A stretch of 64,000 bases of DNA from an uncultured Acidobacteriota bacterium (GCA_963822445.1 CAWGHO010000001.1:448001-512000); one strand, 5' to 3'. Numbered from the stretch's first letter, positions 47,403 to 64,000 are shown. Program-made: numbers and translations. The notes: a model not told the origin generated them from the letters alone.

Positions 47403-47479
<77 letters not shown>

Positions 47480-47666: not shown

Positions 47667-48032
47667 TCAAAGCCGCTTCGGAAATCGGCCGGCGATCGGC
47701 GGCGGAACGTGCGGCCGGAGCGATGCGAGAGAGAGCGCGCCGCTAACGCGCGCTGACTGCCGCTGAAAGCGCGAACGGCGCACACCCGAAGGTGTACGCC
47801 GTTCCCCTGCGCGCGGCGGCTGGCGAGGCGGCAGGGCGTCACGCCAGCGACTCCTGAATTTTGGCGCATGCGTGGCGTAGTTGGTGAGGATCAAGCGACC
47901 CTGTGCGGCTTCGACGTAGACCTCTACCTCGATGCTGAAGCCGTGCTGCTTGAGCCAGTGGCCCGACAGGCGCAGCAAAGGGACGGTCTCACCGCCGGGC
48001 GTCGATGTGTAGCGGAGACCGCGATGCGACTT
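47667..48032 (-). pseudogene. SymE-family (type I TA toxin-like) gene, start disrupted
   Basis: ETVPLLRLSGHWLKQHGFSIEVEVYVEAAQGRLILT fits the SymE pattern PxLxLxGxWLxxxGF; in-frame TGA at 48033-48035 upstream. Confidence 0.6.
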
Positions 48033-48328
48033 TCACGCAGGACGGCGTGCGCGTGCGGCGTGGCTTCGGCGTTGCCGCAGCGGGCGCCACGGGCGCGATG
48101 GAATCGGGCGCGGCCGGGACGGGCTGCGCCTCGACGGCCGGCGACTGCGGCGCGGCTGCAGCGCGGCGGCGCGGACGCGAAAGCTTCGGGTGACGGTGAA
48201 GCGCGGAAAGAAGACGTGAGGGCATGACTTGTTCACCTCCGTTGGTGGCCTCGCGAATCTCGGGCGTGTGAGCGGAGCGGCGCGGTTTCATGGCGTGTTG
48301 ATCCTGAAGGTGAAGCGGTGCGGGGTGC

Positions 48329-49701
48329 CTAGCTGGCGAGGCCAGCGGTACGTCGCAGATCGGCGTTTGCTCGACGCCGAAGACTGTGGGCGATGCCGAC
48401 GACGGCACCGGAACGTCAGGACGTTCCCAACCGAGCACCATCTCCTGCATCAGGTCGAGCTCGATGTTGAAGTAGTGCTTGTTCACGGTCGCGACGCTCG
48501 TATCGCCCATCATCTTCACGACGGCGAGCAGGTGTGCGGGCGTTTTGCCGCGCTGCGCGATGTGCGAGGCGCCGGTGTGGCGGAAGTTGAAGAACTGGCC
48601 CTTCTTCCCTTCGAGGTCGTAGCCGAGCATGCGGCCGGCGATTTCGAGCGAGGCGATTCCACTGCTTGCGGATGTCGACGTACGGCTCGCCCGTTGAAGG
48701 GTTGACGTGGATCGGCCCGGAAGCGTTCGCGGGCCGAATGGACGCGAGGTAGTCGACCAGTTCCGCGGCGAGAGGGCCGCGCGCCTTGATGCCCTTGTTG
48801 ACGTTCTTGTGCTTGTCGAGCTGATACCAGCCGGTGCGGCTTGCGGGGTCTAGCGTGACCTCTTCCCACGTGAGGAAGCGATTGCACTTCGGCCGCATCA
48901 GCGTGTAGTAGCCGATGAGGCACAGCCCGCGGAGCGGGATGTACGAAGGCGACCGAAGGCCGCGGTTCTTCTTTTCCTGCGCAACGCGGGCGTTCCAGGC
49001 GGCTTGCTCGGCTTCGTACTCGCGGAGCGCTGGCCCCATGAGGATGCCGAGCTCCAAACGTGACCACGGCTCCGGCTCGTCATCGTGCACGACTTGCGGC
49101 ACCGGCACACCCTCTAAGTGATGGCGCGGGATGATCCGCTGCGCCTTCGCGCGGTTGAGCATCGCGAGGAGCATGTTTGCGTAATGGCGTTGCGTCTCAG
49201 CGCTGAGGCACCCGACCTCGGCGATCAGCTCCTCATAGAGCGGATAGGTCAGCGTCTCGATATCGCGCTCCGCGTCCGTAGAACGCTTCGATGGCGTCGA
49301 TGCGCGATTTGGCGTGGTCGTAATCCTTGCTTGTTGTCGATGAGGTACCGGCGATAGTTCGACGTGACGGCGAGGAAGCGAACGATGCTTGCCTCTTTAA
49401 CCTCGGCCGCTTTGGCGCGCACGACGCCAGCGTTCAGCTTCTTCTCCTCCGCCTCTTTCACCTGCTGCGCGGCGAGCTTCGATAGCTTCTTGTTACGAGG
49501 GTACGGCGAGTAACGCTTGATGCGAATGTCGATCGGCTCGGCTTCGATCTCCTCGATCGGCCGGCCCGTCTTCGCGGCGCGTTTCGCGCGGTACGGCGGA
49601 CACTGGTCGCACGTGCAGAAGGCGGGATGCGTAATCGGCGGCTCGATGCAGAGGCTACCGATGCGGCCCGAAACCCAGCTCGGCTCGGACTTATACGCCA
49701 T
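48329..49701 (-). pseudogene. Tyrosine recombinase/integrase, frameshifted (3' end approximate)
   Basis: Fragments: MAYKSEP..., LLAMLNRAK, GYYTLMRPK (Arg I), FFNFRHTGASH (HxxR box), MMGDTS...KHY (catalytic Tyr); adjacent to the tRNA. Confidence 0.8.
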
Positions 49702-49890
49702 GTGTGTCTCCCTTACCCGCCGCGCGCGGCCGATCGCTCGCGGCGAGGTCCGCAAGGATCGGCCGCTGTTGGGTCACGCCGGAATGGAGGTTGAACCGGC
49801 GCGGCGCGGCGGAGGTGAAAGTGACGGCGAGTCCCTTACCTGCGGCCTGTCGTGAGTTGCGCTCGACCATCGATCACCTGTCAAGCGTTA

Positions 49891-49919: not shown

Positions 49920-50000
49920 GCGTTATCATGACTGAGAAGCATGCGAAAGCGGTCGTCGAGTGGACGGACTCCGCGCGGAAGCAGGGCGATACTTTCGCCG

Positions 50001-50414
50001 ATGGCAACGCGCACGCCGAGGGGCAAGGGAAAGACGTTCACGGAGGAGTTCGGAGAGCGGCTGCGGAGCGCGCGGGAGCGGCGCGGCTTCACGCAGGAGC
50101 AGCTCGCGGAGATGGTCGGCATCACCGCTTCGCGCGAATCGGAGTATGAAAGCGGACGCTTCGCGCCGCAGCTCGAGAAAGCGGCAAAGCTGGCGGTGGC
50201 GTTAGAGGTGTCACTCGATGCGCTGGTTGGACGCGACACACCCGAGGTGACCGAGGACATCCGCGATCCGAAGTTGCGGGCAAGCGTGCGAGAGCTGGAG
50301 GCGACGGCGAACGCGCGCTACCTCGACGCGGCAAGCCTGGCGGTGGAAGGCTTCGCATCGCTCGCGCGACATGACGAATTCGAGTCACGCCGGCCGAGGC
50401 GCCGGAAGCCGTAG
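50001..50414 (+). CDS. XRE-family HTH repressor
   Basis: FGERLRSARERRGFTQEQLAEMVGI...YESGRFAP...LAVALEVSLDALV. Confidence 0.9.
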   Translation: MATRTPRGKGKTFTEEFGERLRSARERRGFTQEQLAEMVGITASRESEYESGRFAPQLEKAAKLAVALEVSLDALVGRDTPEVTEDIRDPKLRASVRELEATANARYLDAASLAVEGFASLARHDEFESRRPRRRKP

Positions 50415-51308: not shown

Positions 51309-51851
51309 TCAGAACATCTGAGGCTGCGCGAACTCGGCGACGTGATCGTGGATGTACTCCTCGGCGCGCGAGCGCACGTCGGCGTCCGCGGACGAGAGAA
51401 GCGTCACGAGGTCGTCGGGCGTCTTCAGCGTCGAGAACGTCTTCGTCGGCGCGACGTACACGACCGCTGGTTTCGAGCGCGCGACGAGACGCGCGACGTT
51501 CACGAGTGTGCCGGTGCTCTGCCCGTCCCACAACGCCAATCCAACGTCGGCTTCTTCGGCCATCGCGGCGTCCTTCGCCGTGAAGAAAGCAAAGTCGCGG
51601 GCACGATGCGGCGCATCGATCGCACGCACGCGCCAGTTGCCGATGTTGTTCCGACAATCGCCGGCGGTGCAGAAGACGAGGACGTTCGGGTAGCGCTGGT
51701 CGGCGAAGTAGGTCTGAATCGCTTTGTCGGCGCCGTTGGCATCGCCGACAAGGATCGTGAGCTCCCGGCGGATCATCTCTTCGAGGCGCGACTGAACCTC
51801 GGCCGGAAGCCGGGAGATTCGTCGAGAACCGGAAAGGAACACTTTCTTCAT
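51309..51851 (-). CDS. SLOG-superfamily (DprA/YspA-like) protein
   Basis: VFLSGSR, LVGDANGADK, KDAAMA..D, WDGQSTGT. Confidence 0.75.
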   Translation of the reverse strand: MKKVFLSGSRRISRLPAEVQSRLEEMIRRELTILVGDANGADKAIQTYFADQRYPNVLVFCTAGDCRNNIGNWRVRAIDAPHRARDFAFFTAKDAAMAEEADVGLALWDGQSTGTLVNVARLVARSKPAVVYVAPTKTFSTLKTPDDLVTLLSSADADVRSRAEEYIHDHVAEFAQPQMF

Positions 51852-52432
51852 ACGCGCCGCGTCTTGGTCAGAGCGAATGCAAAGATGATAGCCGCTCCGG
51901 CGTTGGCGAGCGCAGCGGCGACGGCACCGAGAGTCGCGCCCGAGCGGATCAGGTCGTCCACAAGCAGCACGCGCTTGCCGCCGATCGCCCGCGCGTTCAC
52001 GGTGAGTGCGTCTTTCAGCACGGCTTCGCGTTCGTGGAACTCGCGAAGGTCCTTCAACTCAGCCGCGCCCGGGGCTTTCTTGGAGACCGCCTTCACGACG
52101 GGCACGTTAAAGCGGCGCGCGAGCTCGTCGGCGATCTGGTGAAGCGGCTGAACGCGACGCGTTCGTGTCGGCGGCGCGGGAACGATCACGTCGAACTTGA
52201 TGCGCCAGGTGCGGATGAATTTCTCGGCGATGGTGCCGATCTCCTCGAGCGCGGACGCGTCGTTTCGATACTTCAGGCGGTAGAGCAACTCCCCGACCTC
52301 GGTGCGATGCGTGTCGAATTGCTCACGCCCGAATTCGTCGTGGCCGAGGAACTCGCTGCCCGTGGAGTGAAGGTCAAGGACTCGGCCGTCTGCCCATGGG
52401 CCGTCAATCTTACGAGGGTTCGTTTTAGTCAC
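51848..52432 (-). CDS. ComF-like phosphoribosyltransferase
   Basis: GELLYRLKY, IVPAPP, VLLVDDLIRSGATL PRPP loop; stop overlaps the SLOG start (ATGA). Confidence 0.88.
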   Translation of the reverse strand: MTKTNPRKIDGPWADGRVLDLHSTGSEFLGHDEFGREQFDTHRTEVGELLYRLKYRNDASALEEIGTIAEKFIRTWRIKFDVIVPAPPTRTRRVQPLHQIADELARRFNVPVVKAVSKKAPGAAELKDLREFHEREAVLKDALTVNARAIGGKRVLLVDDLIRSGATLGAVAAALANAGAAIIFAFALTKTRRV

Positions 52433-52483
52433 GCTTAAATTGTAGCTGCCGTGGACCAGTGAACATCGCGTCTTCGAAACAGT

Positions 52484-53338
52484 TCACGTGTTAGCGCTTC
52501 GGGCATTCCACTCGGCGGATAGGCGAGCGCGATTGCGCTCGTGTATAAAGCTCGGAATGAGCGGTGCAGCGGCTCGCCGGACGTGATACTCCGACATCAT
52601 CGCGGCCGCTTCAAGAACCGAAATATCCTGTCGTTCCAGAAGCCGGCGAGCTTTTCGCTCACACGCTTCGGCACCGTCGCGAAATCCCTTATACCCGAGC
52701 GCCTGCCGGCCAACGGTGGCAGAAAACGCGAAAACAACAACCGCAATCGCAACACGCGCAGTTGTGTCGAGCGCTGCAACCTGATCCGCCATCTCGATCG
52801 CCACTATGAGACTAATGAAACCAAATGCAAGGAGCATCACGAAGGCGACCGCATATGAGCGGAACATCTCGGCCGCCAAATATTTGCTCCACCACGCAGA
52901 CTCGTGAGTCTGGCGGACAGCACGCGTGGAACCGTGAGCGTCGTTCGCGGCGGCGAAGTATGGCTGGACTGCAGTCTCTCCGGCCTGGCTCTTCGACGTG
53001 ACCCTGGGCAGCGTGAGCCTGAGGTCGGCGATCTCCTCGATTGGAAGTGGCTGGCCGAAGCCTTCGTGCAAGTCGAGTTGCCGGAGTAGCCACTCTGCAA
53101 CGCTCTTGCGTTTCTCGGCCAAGTACGCGGCTATTTCTGCAGCAACTGCAGCCGCGGCGACAATCCAAACAGCGCCACGCGCGTACTCTGCGAAGACAAC
53201 GACCGTCAGACCAATGACGAAAGTGAGAATGCGCAGCACTACCGAAACGATCCAGCGATTCTTCGCCGACTCGAAAAGCAGCCGCAAAAAGATGCGAACA
53301 GAGGTGAGACTGAGCTCAGGTATAGATTGGGAACTCAT
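52484..53338 (-). CDS. 4-TM membrane effector (S-4TM-like), CBASS effector candidate
   Basis: Two pairs of TM helices separated by a soluble segment (QPYF...ESAWWS); start overlaps the CD-NTase 3' end. Confidence 0.75.
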   Translation of the reverse strand: MSSQSIPELSLTSVRIFLRLLFESAKNRWIVSVVLRILTFVIGLTVVVFAEYARGAVWIVAAAAVAAEIAAYLAEKRKSVAEWLLRQLDLHEGFGQPLPIEEIADLRLTLPRVTSKSQAGETAVQPYFAAANDAHGSTRAVRQTHESAWWSKYLAAEMFRSYAVAFVMLLAFGFISLIVAIEMADQVAALDTTARVAIAVVVFAFSATVGRQALGYKGFRDGAEACERKARRLLERQDISVLEAAAMMSEYHVRRAAAPLIPSFIHERNRARLSAEWNARSANT

Positions 53339-54320
53339 TGCCGAACACCGCACGCCAAGTTGTCTTCGCAGCCATGGAATGCCCGCGACGGTCGAGCGCT
53401 ACGGCGCGTTGCACCGCCTGGGAAGTCTTTCGTACTGCGAAGCGGTATCGTGCCTTCGTAGCGAGATTCACGTCGCGATCAAGCGCAGGTCCAAGATTCT
53501 TAGGATCGGGACAGGCCGCCATCAGGTGCGGATCTATGTTGGCAAAGAACCGAGCGAGATAGTCAGGAACAGACAAAGACGGAGGCGCGCCGTCAAAGAG
53601 ATTCAGTACTAGCGTCTCCAGATGGTACGACCCGAGCACCGGCTTGTGAGTTCGCTTGTTCCAGTACTTGATGAGTCGAATCGTGGGCCGCAGGAGACCG
53701 CCGTGGGCAGCATTGCAGCGGTCGATTCGTGCTGCATCAAGGCGCGGATCGGTCAGTGACCACTGCGCGCGGCCGTTGGGGATCGCGAAGACGAGATCGC
53801 CGGATTCGAGACGAATCGGGATCGCTGGTGCGATATCGAATGCCCAAGGCGTTGATGAGAGGTCAACGTTTACGACGTGCATATCTTTGCGAACGTCAGA
53901 GCGTCTGTAATGCGGCAGAGCCTGTACGTGATCTCGGAGCGCAAAAAGAAGCCGAGTCGAATTTAAGAAACCATTCTGCGCAAGCGTTGATAACGGATTC
54001 AGCGGATGCACGTGCAGCTGGTACCCGCCAAACGGCCAAGTCCTCAGCTCCGTACCCCAACCATCAAACAGCAGGAGGAGATCGAGATCGTCGAGAGGTT
54101 GCAGTTTCGTTCCTCGAGCGAAAGATCCGGACGGCAACCAGTAGCCGGTCGGAGCCGGGAACATAGTGCTGTCGAGGATGCGGTCGATGAGAAACTGCTG
54201 ACTGGATTTGGCGCGTTCCACTTGGGTTGATTCGAGATCGACGTGCTCGCGTCGGAACCTTGCGAATGCGTCGGCCACAGGAAAAAGGGACGGAGGAGGA
54301 CGAAGCGCGAATGTGCTCAT
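53316..54320 (-). CDS. cGAS/DncV-like nucleotidyltransferase (SMODS/CD-NTase)
   Basis: SGSFARGT..PLDDLDLL (GS...DxD), FDIAPA third Asp, IPNG..W.LTDP, IRLIKYWN, SYHLE, DPK. Confidence 0.88.
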   Translation of the reverse strand: MSTFALRPPPSLFPVADAFARFRREHVDLESTQVERAKSSQQFLIDRILDSTMFPAPTGYWLPSGSFARGTKLQPLDDLDLLLLFDGWGTELRTWPFGGYQLHVHPLNPLSTLAQNGFLNSTRLLFALRDHVQALPHYRRSDVRKDMHVVNVDLSSTPWAFDIAPAIPIRLESGDLVFAIPNGRAQWSLTDPRLDAARIDRCNAAHGGLLRPTIRLIKYWNKRTHKPVLGSYHLETLVLNLFDGAPPSLSVPDYLARFFANIDPHLMAACPDPKNLGPALDRDVNLATKARYRFAVRKTSQAVQRAVALDRRGHSMAAKTTWRAVFGNEFPIYT

Positions 54321-54330
54321 CTACATGATC

Positions 54331-56202
54331 TCACTCTGCCGGTACCGACTCAGGCGTCAGCTGAGCGACTCCTGATGCGGGCTGCAGTTTGCCAAGTTTT
54401 GAGCCGAGTTCGCGCTTCACAGAGTTGTACACGTGGTAGCGGGGCATTACGACCGCAGTTAGTGCTTCTTCGGAGATGGCCTTCTCGATGTGTTCTGGTG
54501 ACCATTCGCGTGAATTACGAAGAGCTTGAGCGCCAATGACGGTCTCGACCAGAGATTGCTCGAACCACCCATGAACAGCCTCCGTCACTAGATCGCGGAT
54601 CGCAGTGGACGTCGGAAGGTCATGGCACCATTTATCGATCATGTCAGTGAAGACTCGAAAATCGGCATTGATGAGAAGGTGATTGAGTTCGGGAATGTAT
54701 CGTCCTGCGCGATCCTCAAAGTCCCCCGGCTCGCGCGTACCGTTCTTAACGCTGACCCAATCAACTTTGGGGAATAGATCCGGCCGGACGCGATCTCCCG
54801 GCGCACCGTCTGTTTTAAGAAAGACGGCATATATCCCTCCCGCCTGGCCACCCTTTGTCCCGGACCGTGAAGTTGATGCGGTCGTTGAGCCACCGGCACC
54901 TCTCGGTTCACCACCGCGAACCGTTTCGTCGGGGTCGACCCGCAGAGACCCGTTTGGCGTTACCCGATAGCGGCTGACTTTATAGAGATCTAGAATTTGC
55001 TTGAGCCGTTCCCGGATGGATTGAGAGTGATCCGATGCGGAGGATGCTGCCGCTTTTTCTTCGATCAATTGCTGAATTGCCTTGGGCATGGCAGCTCGAA
55101 ATTCCGAGGCCCAGTCGCTCCACGGCAAGGGTTCTCTATGGATGAGAAGCTGCGTGCGAGCCGTGTTCGTCGTAATGAGCTTGCCATCCTCGCCCAGCGG
55201 TTCAACGTAGATGACAACTTGCCGATGGCCAAAAAGTACCCCGAACTGCTGTAGCTTCGCCATTCCTGGGCGCGCCGTCGCAAGTTCATAAAGCTCACCG
55301 CGGTAGAGCGCGGCGACATGACCGGATGATTCGATAAAGCCGGAGTTCTGAGATAGCGAGTCGTCGTCGCGAAGAATCCACCAATGAGCTGTGGCATTTG
55401 ACAGGGAGACCGTGCCGGATCCGACAGCGTGCTTCTGCAGATACTCGCGCTGGCCCGTTAGCGTGCGAAGCAAGTTGCGATCTTTGTCGGAGCGTGGTGT
55501 TTTCCAGCCCTCGCGCGCCTTGACTGTTATGCCGGAAGGAAATTCAAAAAAGCGACTGTTGAGATACTTGCTGATCCATCGCGATGGAGAGGAGGCCCCG
55601 GGCGGCGCTGTCATCGTATCGGCATTCGGCGAATTGCCCATGAGCAACACCATGGTGCCGTGATCAGCGATTAGCGGTGGACGAACGGTATCGTCAACTT
55701 CGACAAAGTGAGTCCAACCGCCATCGGGTAGCGGAAACTGCCGCAGTCCGTACTGACCGGTTTCAGGATCGCGCCACAAATGAAGCATCGTCCCGCGGCC
55801 GTTCTTCCAAGATAGGTAGATGAGGCCGTGGTGATTGCGCGTGGCAGCGGCGATCTTTGCTCCGACACCAAAGTTCCCCGTGAGTGACTGCTCGGAAACG
55901 GACGACGAGAGCTGGTTAAGGTACTTAACCATTTCGTCGCCTGTCATCCCCTCGCCGGTGTCGGTAATTGAGAGCTTGTAGGCGCCCGTTTCGTCTAGCT
56001 CAAACGAGTTCCAGTCAACGTCCCATACGATCTCGCCCGTACGATCAGGCGTGCGCTGAATGGCCTCGATGGCATTTTGGGTCAGCTCACGGAGAAACTG
56101 CAGGGGATGACAGTCTTCGCCCAGACGGTCGAGCAGGAAACCAGTGTTGGCTACTTTGAGTGGGTAAGTCTTCTCGGACGACAAGCGGAGCGGCTTCGCC
56201 AT
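54331..56202 (-). CDS. GHKL (HSP90/MORC-like) ATPase-domain protein
   Basis: FLRELTQNAIEA (ExxxN), ITDTGEGM (DxGxG), GNFGVGAK; GGAGG RBS; stop 10 bp before the CD-NTase. Confidence 0.85.
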   Translation of the reverse strand: MAKPLRLSSEKTYPLKVANTGFLLDRLGEDCHPLQFLRELTQNAIEAIQRTPDRTGEIVWDVDWNSFELDETGAYKLSITDTGEGMTGDEMVKYLNQLSSSVSEQSLTGNFGVGAKIAAATRNHHGLIYLSWKNGRGTMLHLWRDPETGQYGLRQFPLPDGGWTHFVEVDDTVRPPLIADHGTMVLLMGNSPNADTMTAPPGASSPSRWISKYLNSRFFEFPSGITVKAREGWKTPRSDKDRNLLRTLTGQREYLQKHAVGSGTVSLSNATAHWWILRDDDSLSQNSGFIESSGHVAALYRGELYELATARPGMAKLQQFGVLFGHRQVVIYVEPLGEDGKLITTNTARTQLLIHREPLPWSDWASEFRAAMPKAIQQLIEEKAAASSASDHSQSIRERLKQILDLYKVSRYRVTPNGSLRVDPDETVRGGEPRGAGGSTTASTSRSGTKGGQAGGIYAVFLKTDGAPGDRVRPDLFPKVDWVSVKNGTREPGDFEDRAGRYIPELNHLLINADFRVFTDMIDKWCHDLPTSTAIRDLVTEAVHGWFEQSLVETVIGAQALRNSREWSPEHIEKAISEEALTAVVMPRYHVYNSVKRELGSKLGKLQPASGVAQLTPESVPAE

Positions 56203-56436
56203 CAAAATCCTCCATCGCGGGTCGGTAGGTGTGCGACCTCCCCACGTTTGAGTGTCGCGGCCGGCCGGCGGCAATGGGGAGCAACTCGCTCGCGATCGCG
56301 TGCCGGGCCAAGTCAACGACTGTTACAGCAAAGTATACCTGACGCAGCGGAGGGTCGAGCGGAGATGATCGCTACGAGGGAAGCTACGAGTTGCCGCACC
56401 GGCGAGATGCCTCAAATGCCAACGCGGGGGGGCGCC

Positions 56437-56746
56437 GGCGCGGCGCTTGCCCGCGGGACACGCGCGTGCACCACACGGACACCCGCTGCAAGCGACGTGA
56501 CGGCGCATGGGCGGTGGAAACGTGCGGCCGCGACGAGCGAACCCACAGGCGATGGGAGGGTGGGAAGTGGCGGCGCCGTTTTTGCGGCCGAGCCGCGCCG
56601 CTTTCATCCCATCGTTCTGCAAAAACGGTGACGCCACGAGGGGGCCGGCGATCTACACCCGGTGGACAACGCGACGCGCACGCAAGGTGCGTTGAACGAT
56701 CGACGAAGCGACCCATGTGCGTGATGGGCGGGCCGTGGGCGGAACA
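56437..56746. repeat. Hairpin-unit module A (2 units + terminal motif)
   Basis: GGCGC-N5-TTGC..GCAA-N5-GTGAC at 56437-56501 and 56572-56632; TGCGTGATGGGCGGGCCGTGGGCGGAACA at 56718-56746. Confidence 0.8.
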
Positions 56747-56807
56747 TAAGAGAGAACTGGCGATCCCCGCGGCAACACCGCTCCATGCGATGCGCGTGCG
56801 GCTGCAA

Positions 56808-58295
56808 TTAGGTCGTCCGGCACGGGCATTGTGCGTAAATCTCACCACTGCCGCATGGGCAGGGACCGTCGGCGACTTTACGAGCCAGGGTTTGGAGAAA
56901 TTCCGGCGGTCTTTCGTTATATTCCGCGGGAAAGATCATTTGCGACTCGACTGGGCGTCTCTTACGGTGGAGTTCTCCCGCGGTTTGTGCGTCTTCTGCC
57001 GACCAGATGCGTGCGTTGAAGTACATGAGGTCTTCGGAACGATCAACATGATTGAATCCGGCCTCCCCCGCGATCCCAATGATGTCCGTGGCGCTGGGGT
57101 GGCGATGCTTGAGAAGGCGGCACTCGGTTTCCAGGATCGCGGCACGACGTTCGCGATATTCTTCGTACGTCATTGACGCAAGTCGCGGAACGAATAGGAA
57201 GATCCAGCACGTCTCGTCTGCGTCACTTGGCACCAAACAACGTGTGTACGTATCGGTGGGAGTTGATTTCGTAAGACCTTCTAGCCACATCCGCCCCAAT
57301 GTTCGGCGACGCACTCGGCCCTCGCGAGCCATGAAGCGAAGAATAAGCTCTGAATCACTAAAGGAATCGTGCGGGTATGCAAACCATCGCCGGTCGTCGA
57401 GCGTGTTCGTAGCTGAAGCGTCGATCATGCGGTCCCACGCATAACTGAGATCGTTCAGTTCTTGCTCGTGCTTCCACCAACCGGAAGCCTCTAGTTGTTG
57501 CCACTGACCTTCGTCAATTTGGATCCCTTCCGACGTTAACTCCACGGCGAAAACACGCTGACCGAAGGGGCCGACGTTAGGCAGGTAGGCCGCCAGAAGG
57601 TCCTCCTCTGAACGCGCAAGCAAGGGTATCGGCGACCGCAAAAGTTCTTCCTTCGCGGCAAGATAGTCGACGAAATCTGTGATGGTGTCGAGAGAACGCA
57701 GCACGATTGGAAGGGACGCGTCGTCGAAGATGTGGACGAACGTTTTTGTGGGACATAGTTCCCCGGCCGTGAAAGGTTTTTTCAGGAGGTCGTCTTCTGC
57801 AAGCATGTTTGTGACTACGAGTCCGCCGGTACCGCCGAGAGCTTGGCGGGTTCGCTGGACTGAGCCGTGCGCCACTACTAGCAGATGGTATTTTGCGTCT
57901 GCGAATGAAGGGATGGACACCGGGAATCTTTGCTTACAAGCTCGGTCAACAAAGATTCGATCAGGATGATCTTTGACCCATCGTTCGGCACCCCGCAGTT
58001 GCTTCTCCGCGGCAAGGACACTTCGTCGGTACCACCGACTCCAGTCGAGTTCTGAGTTCTCGGTCGATGGGAAAACGCAATGTTTGTCGGAAAAGATCAG
58101 TATATGGTTTTCAAACACGACCAAGAGGTCGCAGAGTTCCTTCCCCTCACCGGTTTGACTGACACCCTTGTCTTGGTAGACGCAAGGGTAGCTCCATAGA
58201 CGTAGAAACGTGCCTTCGCAGAGTTCAGCGACAAATCTTTCGGATTCCGTTGTCGGCGAAGACTTCCTGATCGGATCGCGTTCTCGTTCGTCCAC
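56808..58295 (-). CDS. Putative PD-(D/E)xK/NERD-like nuclease with a C-terminal SEC-C zinc motif
   Basis: E..ELCDLLVVF..ILIFSDK..Q; C-terminus PCPCGSGEIYAQC. Confidence 0.7.
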   Translation of the reverse strand: MDERERDPIRKSSPTTESERFVAELCEGTFLRLWSYPCVYQDKGVSQTGEGKELCDLLVVFENHILIFSDKHCVFPSTENSELDWSRWYRRSVLAAEKQLRGAERWVKDHPDRIFVDRACKQRFPVSIPSFADAKYHLLVVAHGSVQRTRQALGGTGGLVVTNMLAEDDLLKKPFTAGELCPTKTFVHIFDDASLPIVLRSLDTITDFVDYLAAKEELLRSPIPLLARSEEDLLAAYLPNVGPFGQRVFAVELTSEGIQIDEGQWQQLEASGWWKHEQELNDLSYAWDRMIDASATNTLDDRRWFAYPHDSFSDSELILRFMAREGRVRRRTLGRMWLEGLTKSTPTDTYTRCLVPSDADETCWIFLFVPRLASMTYEEYRERRAAILETECRLLKHRHPSATDIIGIAGEAGFNHVDRSEDLMYFNARIWSAEDAQTAGELHRKRRPVESQMIFPAEYNERPPEFLQTLARKVADGPCPCGSGEIYAQCPCRTT

Positions 58296-58432
58296 GAGAG
58301 GCGCAATGCAAGGGTGCCGTCATTTCTTCCGCTAGTTCGGTCGAGCTTACTAGTTCGGCGGCTTCCACTCAGCGTAGAACAGTGCAGTGTGCATAGCGCT
58401 ATCGAGCCCGAAGGAGAGCGGGTGATGTTGAA

Positions 58433-58771
58433 GTGAAGCGGGACATTTCCGCAGAATTTCCCACGATGGCTGCGGAAATCACCACACGGAAGGTCGGAAC
58501 GAAGTGGCACGGCTACATCGCTGGCCGGCCGGACCTCGATGAGACCGCGCTGACGGAAGAAGCGGTGCGGCGGAAGATGGAACAGTTGCGCGATCGCATC
58601 GGAGCATGCGGCGCGAAGACGAAGATGTTCGGTGGACGAACGTGTGAACTGATCGCGGGCCACCACGAGCACGGCGAAAGGTACAACGTTCATCGAAGCG
58701 GGACCATCACATGGTTCGATGTGCCGCCGGATGAACCGCGCGATCGCGAGAAGGTTGGGCGGGCGGCATAG
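58433..58771 (+). CDS. Small hypothetical protein
   Basis: Plausible ORF with C..C..HH..H cluster (CGAK..CELIAGHHEH..H); start may be ATG 58466. Confidence 0.55.
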   Translation: MKRDISAEFPTMAAEITTRKVGTKWHGYIAGRPDLDETALTEEAVRRKMEQLRDRIGACGAKTKMFGGRTCELIAGHHEHGERYNVHRSGTITWFDVPPDEPRDREKVGRAA

Positions 58772-59670
58772 GCCCCGGGCGGGAGCCGCGCCGCCGGCGC
58801 CGGGGGCCGCGGAGCCGATGTGCGGCCGAAGCTGCGGCCCGAGGGCGGGCGGTGGCGGACGGGCCGCGCTCGGCCGCACATGGGCTCCGCGGCGGGAGGG
58901 CGGAAGCGCCGGGCCGCGGAGCGCAGCTTCGGCGGCAGGGGGCGCGGGCGGCGGCGCGGCCGAAGGTGCGCGGAGCGGCAGCGCGCGAGCCGAAGGCGAG
59001 CGCGCGCGGCGCGGCGAGGGGGAAACGTGCAGCGCCGATGCAGCACGCCACCGACGGCGAGGCGCACCGCGACCAACGGAAGCGGTGCGCCGGTCAAGCC
59101 GCTGGTGGCGCTGGCGAGACAGTTTGCTGCGCTCTCGGCAGAGAAATGGCCACTGGTTGACGGAACCCCGCGAGGTTGGGGCGCGGCGGCGTGAGCCGCG
59201 CCCCAACGAGCGGGCGGGGGCCTGGGTGGGAGCCGCGGCGCAGGGCGCTGCGAAGCTGCGCCCTGCGAGCAGCGCGCGGCGGACGCGCGCGGAGGTGGAG
59301 CCGGGGGGCGCGCCGCCTGCGCTGCGGCCGCGGCGAGGGGGAAGCTGCGGCCGCGACGCAGTAGCGGACGACGACGCACGCGGCGAATAAGGGTTGGGCG
59401 GTGGAGGGTGCGGCCATGGAAAGCGATCGCGCCTAAGGCTCGGCTAAGCTGCGTGGACCGCTTGAAAGTGATTCGCAGCGGGAACCTCCCCAGCGCGCTG
59501 CACGCGAGCGAGTGGAAACGCGCGGAGCCACGAAGCAGCGGGCCACGACAGCTTCAGCCGCGACCGTTAGGCGCAGCCACAGGCGCACACGTCGCGCATG
59601 CACGAGGACGGGCGTGGAAGCGCGCGGGCTCCGGGACGCCCGAAAGGCCACAGGCGAGGCGGCGCGGCGT

Positions 59671-60161
59671 GGCGCGACCGTTGCCGCGCGCACGGATCGC
59701 ATTCCTTTTCGCGCGCGCCTGCAACGGGCGTGACACGGCGCGGGCTTCACGAGGATCCGGGAAACGTGACGAGCTCGCGGGGTCGGGCGCGGGCAGCAAA
59801 AGCAATGTCGTCGGCGCGCCGGCGCGGCGTTTGCCCGCGCTGACGAGGCGCCACGCGAAAGAAGCCCGCTGCAAACGGCGTGACCGCGCGCGGGAGGGGG
59901 AAACGTGCAGCCGCGCAGAGCAAACCGACGGCGCGGGAGGGCGTGCAGCTGGCGGCGCCGTTTTTGCGGCTGGGCCGCGCCCGTTTCACCATGCCGATCT
60001 GCAAAAACCGTGACACCAGCGAGGGGGCGCGCGCTACCGCGGTAGCAGCGCACTGTAAACGAAACTTGCGCGCCGCGCGGGCGCGCGAAGGTGCGCTGCG
60101 CGTCGCGCGAACATCGCCATGCAACGAGCAGTTGCGTGATGGGCGGGCTGTGGACGGAACA
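59671..60161. repeat. Hairpin-unit module B (3 units + terminal motif)
   Basis: Units at 59671-59734, 59821-59884, 59954-60014; GCAGTTGCGTGATGGGCGGGCTGTGGACGGAACA at 60128-60161. Confidence 0.82.
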
Positions 60162-60343
60162 AAAAAAATGAACGAACAACAATAGGGATTGTGACTATGG
60201 GACAAGCGTGCTCGCCGCGCGAGCGCGAGGACCCCGGCGCACCAGGAGCGCGGACAACCTCATGACCCGCACAAGCCACACGGGCGGGCGGTGGAGCGGT
60301 GCCTGTCGCGATGCCCTTCCCTACTTGCGGGGGCGGGAGCCGC

Positions 60344-60771
60344 GGCGCGGCCGTTGCGTGCGGGCGGCGCGCGACAGCGCGACGTCCCGCATGCAACGGA
60401 CGTGACGCGGCGAGGGCGGGGGGCGGGCGGGTGGTCCGCGATGCGCGTGCCACTCGCGCGGGGGGAAGCGGCGCGCCCGTTGCCGCGAGCACGGCGGCTT
60501 CATCGCGGTCCGAGCATGCAACGGGCGTGACGCGAGGGCGGGCGGGTGTCGCATCCGCGCCGAACGTGCCACTCGCGCGGGCGGGAGCCGCGCGGCGCGA
60601 CCGTTGCCAGCGAAGCACGGCCGCTTCATCGCGGTGCAAGCGTGCAACGGGCGTGACGCGGCGAGGGTGGGCGGGGTCGGGTCGGACGTGTTCGCGAGCA
60701 ACACGCGCCGCGGATCGGCGCATGTCGATCGGAGCGTGCAGTTGCGTGATGGGCGGGCTGTGGACGGAACA
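60344..60771. repeat. Hairpin-unit module C (3 units at 124-126 bp period + terminal motif)
   Basis: Units at 60344-60406, 60470-60531, 60594-60657; 34-bp motif at 60738-60771 identical to that of module B. Confidence 0.85.
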
Positions 60772-61453
60772 GAAAAGCCTCACGCGGCATCACGTGCTGC
60801 TGCATCAATGTCGGCAAATGTTCCTCTTCGACGACATCCGTGTCATACGCGATGACTTCACGTTGCCGGTTTCGCTGCGCGAAGTGATCGCGGGTCGGAA
60901 TCGCTCGTGCGGCTCTCGGCGTAAAGCGTCGGCGAATCGCACGTATCTGCGCGTCGATCGGATTCAAGCGACGCGGTGTGGTTTTCGCTCGTCAAGCCGT
61001 CGACGCGAAACGACCCGGCATCGTCCGCTATCGATCCCGGCGCGCTTTTAAGTCGTCGCCGGTGGCTTCGCGGTGCTCGAGCTGGTGCGCGAAACGGCTC
61101 CGGCGCACGTCGAAATGACGCTTGGGGCTTCCGGGTGATGCCGGGGCACTATTTTTTGGCCGTGGGGCACTTCGCGGTGATGCCCGGAAAGCTCTAATCG
61201 ATGTCCCGGGAGCTGTTTTTGAGGCCCCGGGAGCCGTTTTCGAGGGCCGGGCGGCCGTTTCCGCGGCCGGCGCGCTTTTAAGTGATGTGGGCGATGGATG
61301 GTGGAGGTCAGGCCATGGCCATCACCGCGTCTCCCATGCCGGCGACAGCTTGCCTATCCCGATACTCCCCACGATCTGCACGGCGATCATCCCGAGATAT
61401 GCGGTGCAGTAGAGACACGTCGGCATACCGGGTATGAGCATCAAAGCTTCTGA

Positions 61454-64000
61454 CTATGCCGGGATCAATTCATTGTCGACCGCTTTGATCACGATCCCAT
61501 CCACCGCCGCGAGCAATTGAGGCGTGAGGTTGTTGCGCACAACGGTTAGGGGCTCGAAGGACATCGGTTCAGCTTCTTCGATCATCCTGCGCAACGTTGC
61601 GAGAAACTCCATCAAATTGCGAACGGACTCGGCCCCGTCATCGAAGAGCGATACAGGCAGCATCTCCGCGATCTCAGACGACCTCTGCAAACGATGAATC
61701 AGTTCCGATGTCGCATTGCTCCAGTGCTCTTGCAGCACCACCGTTCCGACACCAGTCGGAGGTGGAGCTTCGTCGATCCCGAGTAGCGCTTCGACCTCGG
61801 CGACTGCGAGCGCGATCTCCGCACGAAGATTCCGCGCCGTCTCTGCGAGCGTCTGCGGATGCAGCGGAATGCCGAGTCGTGTCCAGACGGAATCGTCGAT
61901 GGGAAGAGGCAGGAGCCGCCATCCCGGGAGTTCGTCATCAGGCTGCGGAAGCGTCGAAATCATGAGCGTGCGGCGCGTCGGCTCGAGCGCCTTCCCGCGA
62001 ATCAGGCCGACAAAATGAACTTCTCCCCAAACGAGGTCGAGCGCGTAGCGTTCGACTGCTTCGAAGTCGGGCGGTGGACGAAGGGTGTCGATGGTTGTCG
62101 CAATCACCGCAGCAAGACCAGCGTCGGTGTCAGCCGCGGTATCCACGTCGAGGACGACCCACAGTCCCGCTCCATCCGACCACCGGTCGATCTCCGCATG
62201 AATTCTGGAGCGTGCTTGCGTTAGCGCTTCGAGCCGGCGCGTGAGCTCACGCCGGTACTTCGAGATGACCTGATCGATCTTGGCGCGGGATTCCCGCGTA
62301 GCATCGGTCGGGTATTGCCGTGGGTCGTAGGCGAACTGATACCAGACGGCCCAAAGATTCCATAGCCATGTCTGTTCCTCGTCTTCCAGCGACGGAAGAG
62401 AACCTTGCGCGAACCGCCCGAATCGGGATCGGAACTCATCCTGAAACCGTCGAAGTGCCTTCACGGCATCGGCCAGTCGCCACGTGGGCAGGTGGGGAGT
62501 TTTTCCGCCGGCATGTTCTTCGAGGAGGGCTTGCGCGCGCTCAATCCCGTCGGGAGAAGGACGCCCCAGATCTGGGTTCGCGCGAAGATATGGAATTGCA
62601 GCGCTCATGAAATCGGAAAGCGCATTCGCGTAGTCGTAGAGCGCTTTCAGAAACTCGCCAATCTCATCGCGCGGGTCGACCGTTCGCGCTTCGCTGCGCA
62701 GCCTCACCTCGTAGCCCAGCTCGTCCACAGCCGCGTTCGGAGGCTTCGGAAGCCGGCGCAGCGCTTCGTTGAGCGCAAGCCACTCATCGAGGTTCGCTCC
62801 GAGCTCGAAGATGTGCTTGGGTTTGTCGCGATTGAAGTACTTGCGCAGCGCGGAAACGACATCACGCGCGAGCGCGACGACACGCTGGCGCAATTCCAGA
62901 ATCGCTTTCGCGTATTCACCCCAAGGCAGATAGACGCGCGCGGCGTGCGAAAACAGAAGATGCAGACGTGTGGCCCACGGTACGGGAAACGACTGCTTTG
63001 GAATGCCCTTCTTCTCAGACGGATCGTGCGCGAAGATGGCCATCCCCGCGACGCCGCATGCTCGAGCGCCGAAGGTGCTCTCGTCCGGGAAGAGACGGCG
63101 CAAGACATCGACCCGCCGGATGGTCTCTCCATGAAGATCCAACGGCGCAGACGGAGCGGGCGACATGACGTAGTACGCCATGACTTCACCATCGTCGATG
63201 TCAATCGCGAACGTCGCTGACTCCTCCTGGAACCGCGCGATCAGCGTCTGACGGAGAGACTCAAAAGCCTCCGGCCGCGCGTCACGGGATTGGAACGAGA
63301 GCGCGAAGACGAAGTCGGCACATGTCTCCAGCGAAACATCTGTCTGGCTTGCCGTCAGACGTTGGGTCGCACTCGCCATCGCCGCCGGGTCAACGACGTT
63401 CCAGGCGATCGCCCAGAAGAGCATTTCCGCCACCGCTGACCAATCGGATGAAGGAGTCGCGAGCACGGACTTGCCCGCACCTCCGAGCCAAGCGCGCGCT
63501 TCTTCGAACACAGGCTCGTTCGATGGAATCCGCGATTGCACATCGGCGTACCACTCCCGCTGACTCGGCACCATTCCGAAGATCGTGTCGAAATTGTCCG
63601 AGAAGCCGGGGATGAATTGTTTCAGGCCTGCAGGGTCGAGGATGCCCCATGCGATCTCGGCTCCGCCCACATGCACGCGAATCTCCTCGAGGATGGCCCC
63701 ATGTTGCGCGCGGTATCGCTGGATTCCGCGCCAGAGCAACGCGCGAACGACGCCGACGGCCCCCGTCATCGTTTCGGGTTTGAATGTGCGAACGTGCAGC
63801 AAGATCGCCTCGGCTTCCGCTTCAGACCGGCGCGCGAATCCGTGCAGGAGAAACGCTTCGAGGTCGGCCTCATCGAGCGACGCCATCGCTGCAATGGCCG
63901 CCTCGGACCACGATGGGTCGAGCTCATCCCGTGTGAGGAGATCGGCCGTGAGTTGCGACCGCAGAGGATGTAGCCCTTCGGCATAGAGTCGGTCTTTCGA
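61454..64000 (-). CDS. Large hypothetical protein, C-terminal part (5' end outside the window)
   Basis: Frame stays open from 64000 (SKDRLYAEGLHPLRSQL...) to the stop at 61454; mostly helical. Confidence 0.8.
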   Translation of the reverse strand, partial: SKDRLYAEGLHPLRSQLTADLLTRDELDPSWSEAAIAAMASLDEADLEAFLLHGFARRSEAEAEAILLHVRTFKPETMTGAVGVVRALLWRGIQRYRAQHGAILEEIRVHVGGAEIAWGILDPAGLKQFIPGFSDNFDTIFGMVPSQREWYADVQSRIPSNEPVFEEARAWLGGAGKSVLATPSSDWSAVAEMLFWAIAWNVVDPAAMASATQRLTASQTDVSLETCADFVFALSFQSRDARPEAFESLRQTLIARFQEESATFAIDIDDGEVMAYYVMSPAPSAPLDLHGETIRRVDVLRRLFPDESTFGARACGVAGMAIFAHDPSEKKGIPKQSFPVPWATRLHLLFSHAARVYLPWGEYAKAILELRQRVVALARDVVSALRKYFNRDKPKHIFELGANLDEWLALNEALRRLPKPPNAAVDELGYEVRLRSEARTVDPRDEIGEFLKALYDYANALSDFMSAAIPYLRANPDLGRPSPDGIERAQALLEEHAGGKTPHLPTWRLADAVKALRRFQDEFRSRFGRFAQGSLPSLEDEEQTWLWNLWAVWYQFAYDPRQYPTDATRESRAKIDQVISKYRRELTRRLEALTQARSRIHAEIDRWSDGAGLWVVLDVDTAADTDAGLAAVIATTIDTLRPPPDFEAVERYALDLVWGEVHFVGLIRGKALEPTRRTLMISTLPQPDDELPGWRLLPLPIDDSVWTRLGIPLHPQTLAETARNLRAEIALAVAEVEALLGIDEAPPPTGVGTVVLQEHWSNATSELIHRLQRSSEIAEMLPVSLFDDGAESVRNLMEFLATLRRMIEEAEPMSFEPLTVVRNNLTPQLLAAVDGIVIKAVDNELIPA

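Follow-up and report, generated by a model that had tools for sequence, protein, structure and literature searches.

In the passages of the literature drawn on here and below, attC sites of integrons are treated as structure-specific, with only the AAC/GTT triplets called conserved and with a terminal structure of 20-100 nt whose sequence varies (Cury 2016, PMC4889954). The strand recombined in characterised integrons is the bottom strand (Nivina 2016, PMC5027507). Here we describe a family of imperfect hairpins in a window of 64,000 nt (G000:C1:448001-512000), i.e., the whole stretch of DNA that was analysed, from the genome of an uncultured Acidobacteriota bacterium (GCA_963822445.1, hereafter G000). 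Eight copies, first noticed in a reading made from the DNA alone (the sequence-only reading), lie in the window as a tandem array within a defence island, and each is, box for box, the same hairpin as the apex of the attC sites of this genome. The array resembles a CALIN (a cluster of attC sites without an integron integrase; Cury 2016, PMC4889954) in that attC-related hairpins lie far from intI and a complete integron is present elsewhere, but its members are not attC sites by the R- and L-box criterion. The units share with attC sites the folding of the bottom strand, the fixed unpaired positions and the single orientation; they differ in lacking R''/R' and L boxes and in keeping a conserved order between genomes, and they stand 124-150 nt apart without cassette open reading frames (ORFs), whereas attC sites occur once per cassette, after the ORF, at intervals of 0.4 to a few kb.

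Tandem clustering with conserved linkers is a property of the bacterial interspersed mosaic elements (BIMEs) of Escherichia coli. Repetitive extragenic palindromes (REPs) and their BIME and REPIN (REP doublet forming hairpins) arrangements are, like the present units, imperfect palindromes in tandem clusters with conserved linkers, but as outlined in the passages cited they differ from them in length (20-40 nt versus 61-80 nt) and in the GTAG or CGTC tag, which the units do not have, and the units are all in direct orientation (Di Nocera 2013, PMC3733652). In one genome, G051, the hairpin family is dispersed intergenically as doublets, which is a further likeness to REPs; in G000 it is not dispersed, and no REP-associated tyrosine transposase (RAYT) gene flanked by units was found.

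The -24/-12 element of sigma-54 promoters has the consensus TGGCACG-N4-TTGC, in which GG and GC stand in a GG-N10-GC register. The left arm of the hairpin has the same register and rpoN is present in the genome, but the element lies within a covarying hairpin, and its orientation and spacing are unlike those of ordinary promoters. Strand-specific imperfect hairpins that act in one orientation only are also known from Frpo-type promoters in single-stranded DNA (ssDNA), from single-strand origins and from the ends of IS200/IS605 elements. The present hairpins are likewise strand-specific and imperfect, with two similar hairpins per element, as in dyads; the difference is that the array has no linked gene for transfer, for rolling-circle replication or for a Y1 transposase.

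A hairpin common to the window array and the attC apex

The units were searched as GGCGC-N5-TTGC-N30-40-GCAA-N5-GTGAC. All eight starts given in the sequence-only reading are exact matches on the + strand, and the pattern has no match in 100 dinucleotide-preserving shuffles. Module 1 consists of unit A (56437..56501, with a stem extending to about 56432-56506) and unit B (56572..56632, with a stem about 6 bp longer on each side); module 2 of unit C (59671..59734), unit A' (59821..59884, a paralogue of A) and unit B' (59954..60014, a paralogue of B); and module 3 of units D (60344..60406), E (60470..60531) and F (60594..60657). Start-to-start spacings are 135 nt in module 1, 150 and 133 nt in module 2, and 126 and 124 nt in module 3.

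Genome-wide, G000 contains 46 exact matches (reversed-pattern control: 0). When one mismatch was allowed per outer box, 57 matches were obtained, comprising the 8 of the window, 44 inside full-length attC sites and 5 in hairpin-plus-tail elements within integron cassettes (49 outside the window); the units are thus not scattered in G000 like ordinary REPs. An intact IntI is encoded at C2:2118113-2119048 (TIGR02249, 456 bits, cut-off 265), on a contig other than that of the window. Beside this gene the 61-nt unit forms the middle of a longer repeat that starts with GYCTAAC and ends with GTTAGSC, the canonical attC R boxes, beyond which the copies are no longer alike. A search of G000 with a profile made from this long repeat yielded 123 matches, of which 100 are full length, with a median of 203 nt when short flanks are counted. 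The chromosomal integron holds 87 full-length attC sites at C2:2120561-2226597 (106 kb), 86 of them on one strand, at a spacing of 477-3729 nt (median 1126 nt), and several integrase-less attC clusters are also present in the genome. The long attC site is predicted to fold into a hairpin with the unit as its apical branch (z = -5.5). The analogy with attC drawn in the sequence-only reading is therefore stronger than that reading could know, the unit being the apex of the genome's real attC sites.

The long ORFs of the cassettes lie on the strand opposite to that on which the units were first read, and end 0-90 nt before the site. In a duplicated cassette the identity of the copies stops exactly after the R-box GTT on the ORF-sense strand, which makes the strand of the units the attC bottom strand. 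We ascribe to the C2 integron the 'inverted' arrangement that is noted in the relevant passage of Cury 2016 (PMC4889954); the sites differ from the description given in the same source in that the boxes of the apex are invariant across phyla and the whole site measures about 200 nt. In the literature listings and passages searched, neither a conserved motif at the attC apex nor a sigma-54 site within attC is described. The five cassette-borne elements (C2:2150406, 2164145, 2169102, 2199487 and 2202037) have an extended stem of about 27 bp round the core hairpin, followed by CGAGGGTGGGCGG and a GTTGTGATG tail, and resemble the modules of the window. The ORFs beside these elements show no kinship among themselves or with a conserved ORF of 112 aa that lies between modules 1 and 2 of the window.

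The eight window units are bare copies of the attC-apex hairpin module, not complete attC sites. A profile built from the G000 attC sites and run with all filters off matches them only at profile positions of about 55-133, which is the apex; the best match in the window is unit E, again in its apex part only. No R''/R' (AAC/GTT) or L boxes were found round the units, and no conserved AAC lies 5' of unit A in six genomes, whereas AAC/GTT ends are found on the 100 full-length attC sites elsewhere in G000. The absence of the RYYYAAC/GTTRRRY consensus, pointed out in the sequence-only reading, thus holds; a new kind of attC site in which that consensus is replaced does not emerge.

That selection acts on a folded single strand, as was first proposed from the covarying spacers, is backed by the covariation itself, by compensatory changes that extend the stem, by the constraint on the boxes and by the stability of the + strand. 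The N5 spacers are paired at 4-5 of 5 positions (G-T counted) in all eight units. In an alignment of 41 units (37 distinct) from G000 and five relatives, where the boxes are invariant by ascertainment, all five N5 pairs vary on both sides (59 cells versus 21.3±4.7 in shuffles, 0/500), and the covariation score is 0.269 versus 0.069±0.011 in shuffles (0/500; slid controls at most 0.152). The irregularities of the outer box described at the outset are indeed fixed: both the G.A mismatch and the G.U/G.T pair occur in 37 of 37 distinct units. The second N5 pair is unpaired in 25 of the 37. Since the boxes of this collection are invariant by the way it was made, the box test was repeated on orthologous blocks cut by synteny alone, without use of the unit pattern. 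Here the boxes are identical in 144/144 and 431/432 comparisons (575/576 in total), while identity in other parts of the same alignments is 75% and 71% in linkers, 81% and 78% in loops, and 93% and 82% in spacers. The stems reach 5-6 bp past the boxes first described, with compensatory changes, and the loops are kept between orthologues and differ between paralogues. As far as folding predictions go, the + strand is more stable than its complement in 8 of 8 window units (-27.8 versus -22.5 kcal/mol, DNA parameters), and the strand of the first reading is also the more stable one in 42 of the 49 units elsewhere in the genome.

The earlier statement that no credible coding sequence overlaps the units stands in part. 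Long ORFs do overlap them (e.g., 59408-60013 on the + strand and 60034-60783 on the - strand), but no overlapping ORF passed a crude filter on GC content at third codon positions, and two of the five spacings are not multiples of three; the ORFs were called with a crude script, and no formal coding test was applied.

Distribution and setting in other genomes

Within the genus, which belongs to the Thermoanaerobaculia, the exact pattern is present in 15 of 24 genomes sampled (14 of 23 without the unpublished G002), compared with 0 of 16 outside the genus and none in controls. A covariance model of the unit, with the best 150 candidates scored per genome, has matches in at least 31 of 35 genomes of the genus (at least 29 of 33 without the unpublished G002 and G041). 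Tandem window-type arrays among the matches listed are those of G000, G005, G007, G008, G014, G018, G023 and G048. IntI exceeds its cut-off in 20 of the 35 genomes (18 of 33 without G002 and G041). The relatives are draft genomes and metagenome-assembled genomes (MAGs), and no conclusion rests on the two unpublished ones. The dependence on IntI that characterises attC sites is not seen for the arrays: in G000 IntI lies on another contig, arrays occur with no IntI match at 1e-30 in the drafts G007 (97% complete, 90 contigs) and G018, and G008 has IntI fragments only. The hairpin array is thus independent of detectable IntI.

Synteny of the three modules extends over at least five genomes of the genus, and is documented for the array in G005, G007, G008 and G018. 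In these four the recombinase and helix-turn-helix (HTH) genes of the island, variable DNA and module 1 stand in that order, and a G-rich, hairpin-rich stretch, module 2, module 3 and a block of 450 nt follow in all four; the 112-aa ORF comes after module 1 in G005, G008 and G018, and G007 has other DNA there. In six of six genomes, similarity starts 8-10 nt 5' of unit A, where it abuts unrelated DNA, and ends at a position equivalent to about 61300. The slot to the left of module 1 is occupied in the window by variable defence cargo on the - strand (51309..56316), encoding a phosphoribosyltransferase (PsyrT/ShosT-like), an effector with four transmembrane segments, a cyclase of a cyclic-oligonucleotide-based antiphage signalling system (CBASS) and a HATPase protein. 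In place of the HATPase and CBASS genes of G000, the slot of G008 contains a BsuBI/PstI-type restriction-modification system together with a Gabija-like pair, that of G007 a TIR protein and that of G005 genes of no assigned function; the differing cargo of these three relatives fits a defence-island hotspot. The suspected links are also borne out: the units adjoin variable defence genes and travel with the divergent tyrosine recombinase of the island, of which G005 (506 aa) and G007 (446 aa) have intact copies. The observation made from the window alone is confirmed, and its interpretation is partly supported.

A scan across phyla covered one genome per species, with loci listed for 80 of at least 141 stretches. 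At the loci listed, 63 of 91 matches have at least 4 of 5 N5 pairs, against a chance expectation that we calculate as about 7%. In MAGs of Steroidobacteraceae, Pyrinomonadaceae, Treponema and Bacteroidales the hairpin is central in a longer hairpin with ends of the CCTAAC..GTTAGG type, and such attC-like sites often occur several per contig at kb spacing; in MAGs of Planctomycetota and Eisenbacteria it lies between AAC..GTT ends. The Steroidobacteraceae genome encodes IntI (453 bits). In these other genomes, G051 (below) included, GGCGC is usually preceded by T and GTGAC is followed by A; the feet of the hairpin read CTGGCGC../..GTGACAG.

The unrelated genome G051 (3.1 Mb, of lower GC content) carries 31 exact copies, dispersed on both strands, and no IntI at 1e-20. 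Doublets of two hairpins make up 14 of the 16 loci examined, with the hairpins 17-19 nt apart in 13 of them and 58 nt apart in one. The doublets are intergenic, and the orientation classes of their neighbours are represented 4, 3, 3 and 4 times among the 14 loci with both neighbours called; four of the loci lie between convergent genes, and in four of the 14 loci neither neighbour would be able to transcribe the doublet in sense. The first hairpin shares its 14+14-nt arms, down to the purine-purine mismatch, with unit A' of G005, G007 and G008. The dispersed two-hairpin elements, at least 31 in number (e.g., L200-L215), measure about 170 nt and have loops that are AT-rich yet partly conserved; no terminal inverted repeats or target duplications were seen in them by eye. 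A cognate Y1 transposase was considered and rejected, as hairpins are absent from the 1.5 kb on either side of the sole Y1_Tnp gene in G051 and none lies beside the Y1_Tnp genes examined.

What may read the hairpin

The hairpin occurs at the attC apex, in the cassette-borne elements and in the island array; these three settings together would call for a reader, independent of detectable IntI, of the two invariant boxes in a stem that forms on one strand. The reading that we favour, tentatively and with somewhat less than even confidence, is that of a cis-acting module common to attC sites and the island, which folds as a hairpin from a single strand in a strand-specific manner, as DNA rather than RNA, and is read by a protein. 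We are much surer that the window unit and the attC apex are the same hairpin. The units would work in cis and fold from one strand only, the + strand of the window corresponding to the attC bottom strand. Folding would take place when this strand is in single-stranded form, with DNA more probable than RNA because the attC unit lies on the recombined strand, antisense to the genes, and because the copies in G051 ignore gene orientation. A sequence-specific factor would then read the GGCGC/GTGAC boxes, with their fixed G.A and G.T, and the TTGC/GCAA boxes. In attC sites the module may nucleate and bias the folding of the recombined strand. In the island, the tandem copies, the conserved G-rich linkers and the tail motif that follows each module would make up a non-coding backbone, bordering segments of exchanged defence cargo in the manner of REP/BIME clusters or of recombination accessory sites.

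Compared with the passages cited, what is new is a class of very long attC sites whose apical hairpin is invariant, bears mismatches and is found again in several phyla. Without attC arms this hairpin persists as an array under strong constraint in a defence island and, in G051, as a repeat scattered over the genome. The invariance of the apex and its persistence without arms point to a second reader of these sites. Should it be found, it could bear on the folding and strand choice of long attC sites, on cassette expression in large arrays, on the origin of attC and on the swapping of defence cargo in islands.

Several observations weigh against the preferred reading. The G.U pairs and the conserved single-stranded G-rich linkers fit RNA equally well. 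Only the box pattern is common to the array and attC: a blastn search with 56200-60900 against the genome returned the region itself only, and the attC profile does not extend into the tails to any R' end. No recombination at the apex was detected, as 0 of 4950 pairs among 100 attC sites are discordant (one arm at least 95% and the other at most 75% identical). The order of the units is conserved as in vertically inherited DNA, with no cassette-like shuffling seen, and the sharp borders can also be obtained by homologous exchange between conserved flanks. The lack of IntI is judged from draft genomes (90 and 500 contigs), and the evidence across phyla consists of MAG contigs from the 80 stretches.

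An array of structured non-coding RNA is an unlikely alternative. Transcription would cover the + strand at about 58.8 to 60.8 kb (and module 1) and might start at the promoter of the 112-aa ORF, and the constant stems with their unit-specific loops might serve the island as a scaffold, a sponge or a source of processed small RNAs. The covariation, the invariant G.U pair and the strand asymmetry suit an RNA, as do the G-rich linkers conserved between the hairpins (with many GGGA/GGAG motifs), the location of the stretch immediately after a small conserved ORF that is read from the same strand, and loops that are kept in orthologues and divergent in paralogues. On the other hand, searches with Rfam 15 gave no match at E<=1 at 54000-64000 of the window or at 11 loci of other genomes, no sigma-70-like promoter was found, and terminator-like sites are no commoner than in shuffles. 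The eight loops, compared with the genome by blastn-short, show chance-level complementarity only (best E 0.025). Moreover, the folding strand of attC is antisense to the cassette genes, and the G051 element has no fixed orientation to its neighbours, 4 of 14 loci being out of reach of sense transcription from either; this independence of orientation argues for an element that acts at the level of DNA.

We attach rather little probability to the modules being true crossover sites, i.e., variant attC-like or att sites used by IntI in trans or by the island recombinase. Consistent with such a role, the DNA next to the 5' foot of unit A is variable in 6/6 genomes, as is that after the tail motifs; modules 1 and 2 form direct repeats on either side of a segment whose length varies; synteny of the array with the island recombinase, which is undamaged in G005 and G007, holds in every case; and hairpin-plus-tail elements also occur inside integron cassettes. 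However, there is no AAC/GTT R-box pair round the units, and the island recombinase, which was considered as a relative of IntI, is not IntI-like, its likeness being confined to the box II region (PF00589 below cut-off, no NCBIfam match). In addition, arrays are kept in genomes in which IntI was not found, the unit order is conserved with no shuffled arrangement seen, and there are no apex-level mosaics among the 100 attC sites.

The left arm of the hairpin might also be a sigma-54 site, with the -24/-12 element present in the duplex or rebuilt on ssDNA by the hairpin stem, the loop being pre-opened; this, too, we consider rather improbable. The resemblance that was noted from the sequence alone is real, as all eight units read GGCGCS-N4-TTGC with GG and GC in exact register (the sixth position is G in six units and C in units B and B'). 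GGCGCG-N4-TTGC agrees with the consensus at 9/10 positions, in all eight units; eight relaxed units elsewhere in G000, all of them in the C2 integron region, read GGCAC; and the hairpins of other phyla come closer (CTGGCGCG-N4-TTGC), with 9-11 of 10-12 positions overall. A mismatch stands directly after TTGC, and rpoN is present in G000 (PF04552, 226 bits, C3:1663596) and in 5/5 other hairpin-bearing genomes versus 4/14 controls. To judge by the geometry, transcription on ssDNA would proceed toward the downstream cassette or toward the minus-strand cargo to the left of module 1. In the integron duplex, however, the element points antisense into its own cassette, and eight promoters 125-150 nt apart with no genes between them would be odd. 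In 39 of 41 units TTGC is followed by C or G rather than by A/T, and the A of GGCAC is replaced by G in every window-type unit; the inner box also occurs as GTGC or ATGC with compensation, as expected of a stem. No enhancer-binding protein was seen, although no search was directed at such proteins. Against ordinary promoters stand the orientation in the integron, the spacing of the tandem units, the C/G that follows TTGC and the 4/14 G051 loci with convergent neighbours.

A sigma-54-type promoter that exists only in folded ssDNA is very doubtful. The stem would rebuild the -24/-12 duplex, the fixed mismatches and the loop would provide a pre-opened fork, and the polymerase, having passed the loop, would continue into the DNA on the 5' side of the hairpin. 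If this were true, each long attC site would fire sense transcription of the next cassette and the modules of the island would fire the minus-strand defence cargo, in both cases only while the strand is single-stranded (transfer, transformation, lagging-strand template). Such elements would correspond, for sigma-54, to the Frpo-type ssDNA promoters that plasmids carry in their leading regions, and would give the 'variable' terminal structure of attC a sequence-specific job. Finally, a decayed old cassette array or a selfish repeat without present function is highly improbable and already disfavoured, for all that a weak attC-arm-like relic lies between modules 1 and 2, integrase-less attC clusters are present in G000 and the family behaves as a dispersed repeat in G051, since the boxes are identical in all but one of the orthologous comparisons, against 71-75% identity in the linkers, and pairing is maintained through two-sided changes.

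Further features of the island and the integron

The island of about 30 kb that contains the array lies at a tRNA-Asp gene (47403..47479, + strand), its attachment site, and a 45-nt direct repeat of the 3' end of this gene is located 30 kb downstream, beyond the window. Two direct repeats of the tRNA-Asp 3' end (45 and 35 nt) at C1:525597 and C1:567900 (window coordinates 77597 and 119900, outside the window) suggest two tandem islands at this tRNA. The recombinase gene of the island is broken in G000 and stands with an ORF of 168 aa at 47989..49755 on the - strand; it is followed at 49941..50414 (+ strand) by an HTH repressor-like backbone gene (RstR-like, below cut-off). Further cargo of the island includes a STAND NTPase and others. 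A gene for a protein of 495 aa (phrog_18195) at 56808..58295 on the - strand, between module 1 and the 112-aa ORF, is present at this place only in G000.

Each module is followed by a tail motif on the + strand. The tail at the end of module 1, GCGTGATGGGCGGGCYGTGGRCGGAACA, lies at 56717..56746, with variable DNA beginning right after it; that of module 2 lies at 60131..60160 and is 95% identical to that of module 3, which lies at 60740..60770. By eye, the tail motif resembles the 3' end of the G051 dyads. A degenerate L'/R' end was considered as its origin, as suggested by a MAFFT column match with the cassette-borne elements, and was rejected when the attC profile did not confirm it.

The conserved 112-aa ORF between modules 1 and 2 (58433..58771, + strand) has 66-79% aa identity in three relatives. 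It has no match in Pfam, NCBIfam, PADLOC or Atlas, and only a weak PHROG match; its N-terminal half (KWHGYIxGRPDLDETALTEEA) resembles by eye the antitoxin motif of HicB/UPF0150, a likeness that no profile match supports. Directly after this ORF comes the G-rich, hairpin-rich non-coding stretch (58772..59640, + strand), which is kept in relatives and contains an 88-nt palindrome at 58806-58893. Positions 58772-59400 have a GC content of 70-74% with positive GC skew, contain further hairpins and are 74-83% conserved in relatives. The attC-arm-like relic is found at about 59431-59575 (profile match at 59539-59571, E 0.48). The right part of the conserved block occupies 60777..61300 on the + strand, and the similarity of the relatives stops after ..GGCGCGCTTTTAAGTGATGTGGG; a tail-like GTGATGTGGG precedes this end. 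Within 61040-61300, GGCGCGCTTTTAAGT is present twice, 230 nt apart, and three tandem CCGGGAGCYGTTTTYGAGG-like hairpin units are found at the right end of the block.

The integron and its IntI (C2:2118113-2226597) form a large sedentary chromosomal integron. Its attC sites of about 200 nt exceed the sizes implied by the terminal structure of 20-100 nt given in the passage of Cury 2016 (PMC4889954). In the passage on extrahelical bases in Nivina 2016 (PMC5027507), these lie across the stem from the AAC triplet of the strand that is recombined; the only 3-nt bulge of a long attC site (e.g., C2:2221468-2221668) is on the same arm as AAC, the opposite of that rule, in the minimum free energy fold. 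An apparent chimera at the apex among the attC sites proved to be weak family similarity only. Cassettes of about 480 nt without a convincing ORF are repeated a dozen times (85-92% identical), sometimes back to back (e.g., C2 2154926-2155618, 2177488-2178645 and 2180977-2182632). An element of 1.1 kb with an ORF of 311 aa, probably an insertion sequence, occurs in four copies that are 98-99.8% identical (C2:2203348-2204447, 2211810-2212883 and 2220421-2221522; C1:1226992-1228095), in both orientations, inside or beside attC sites.

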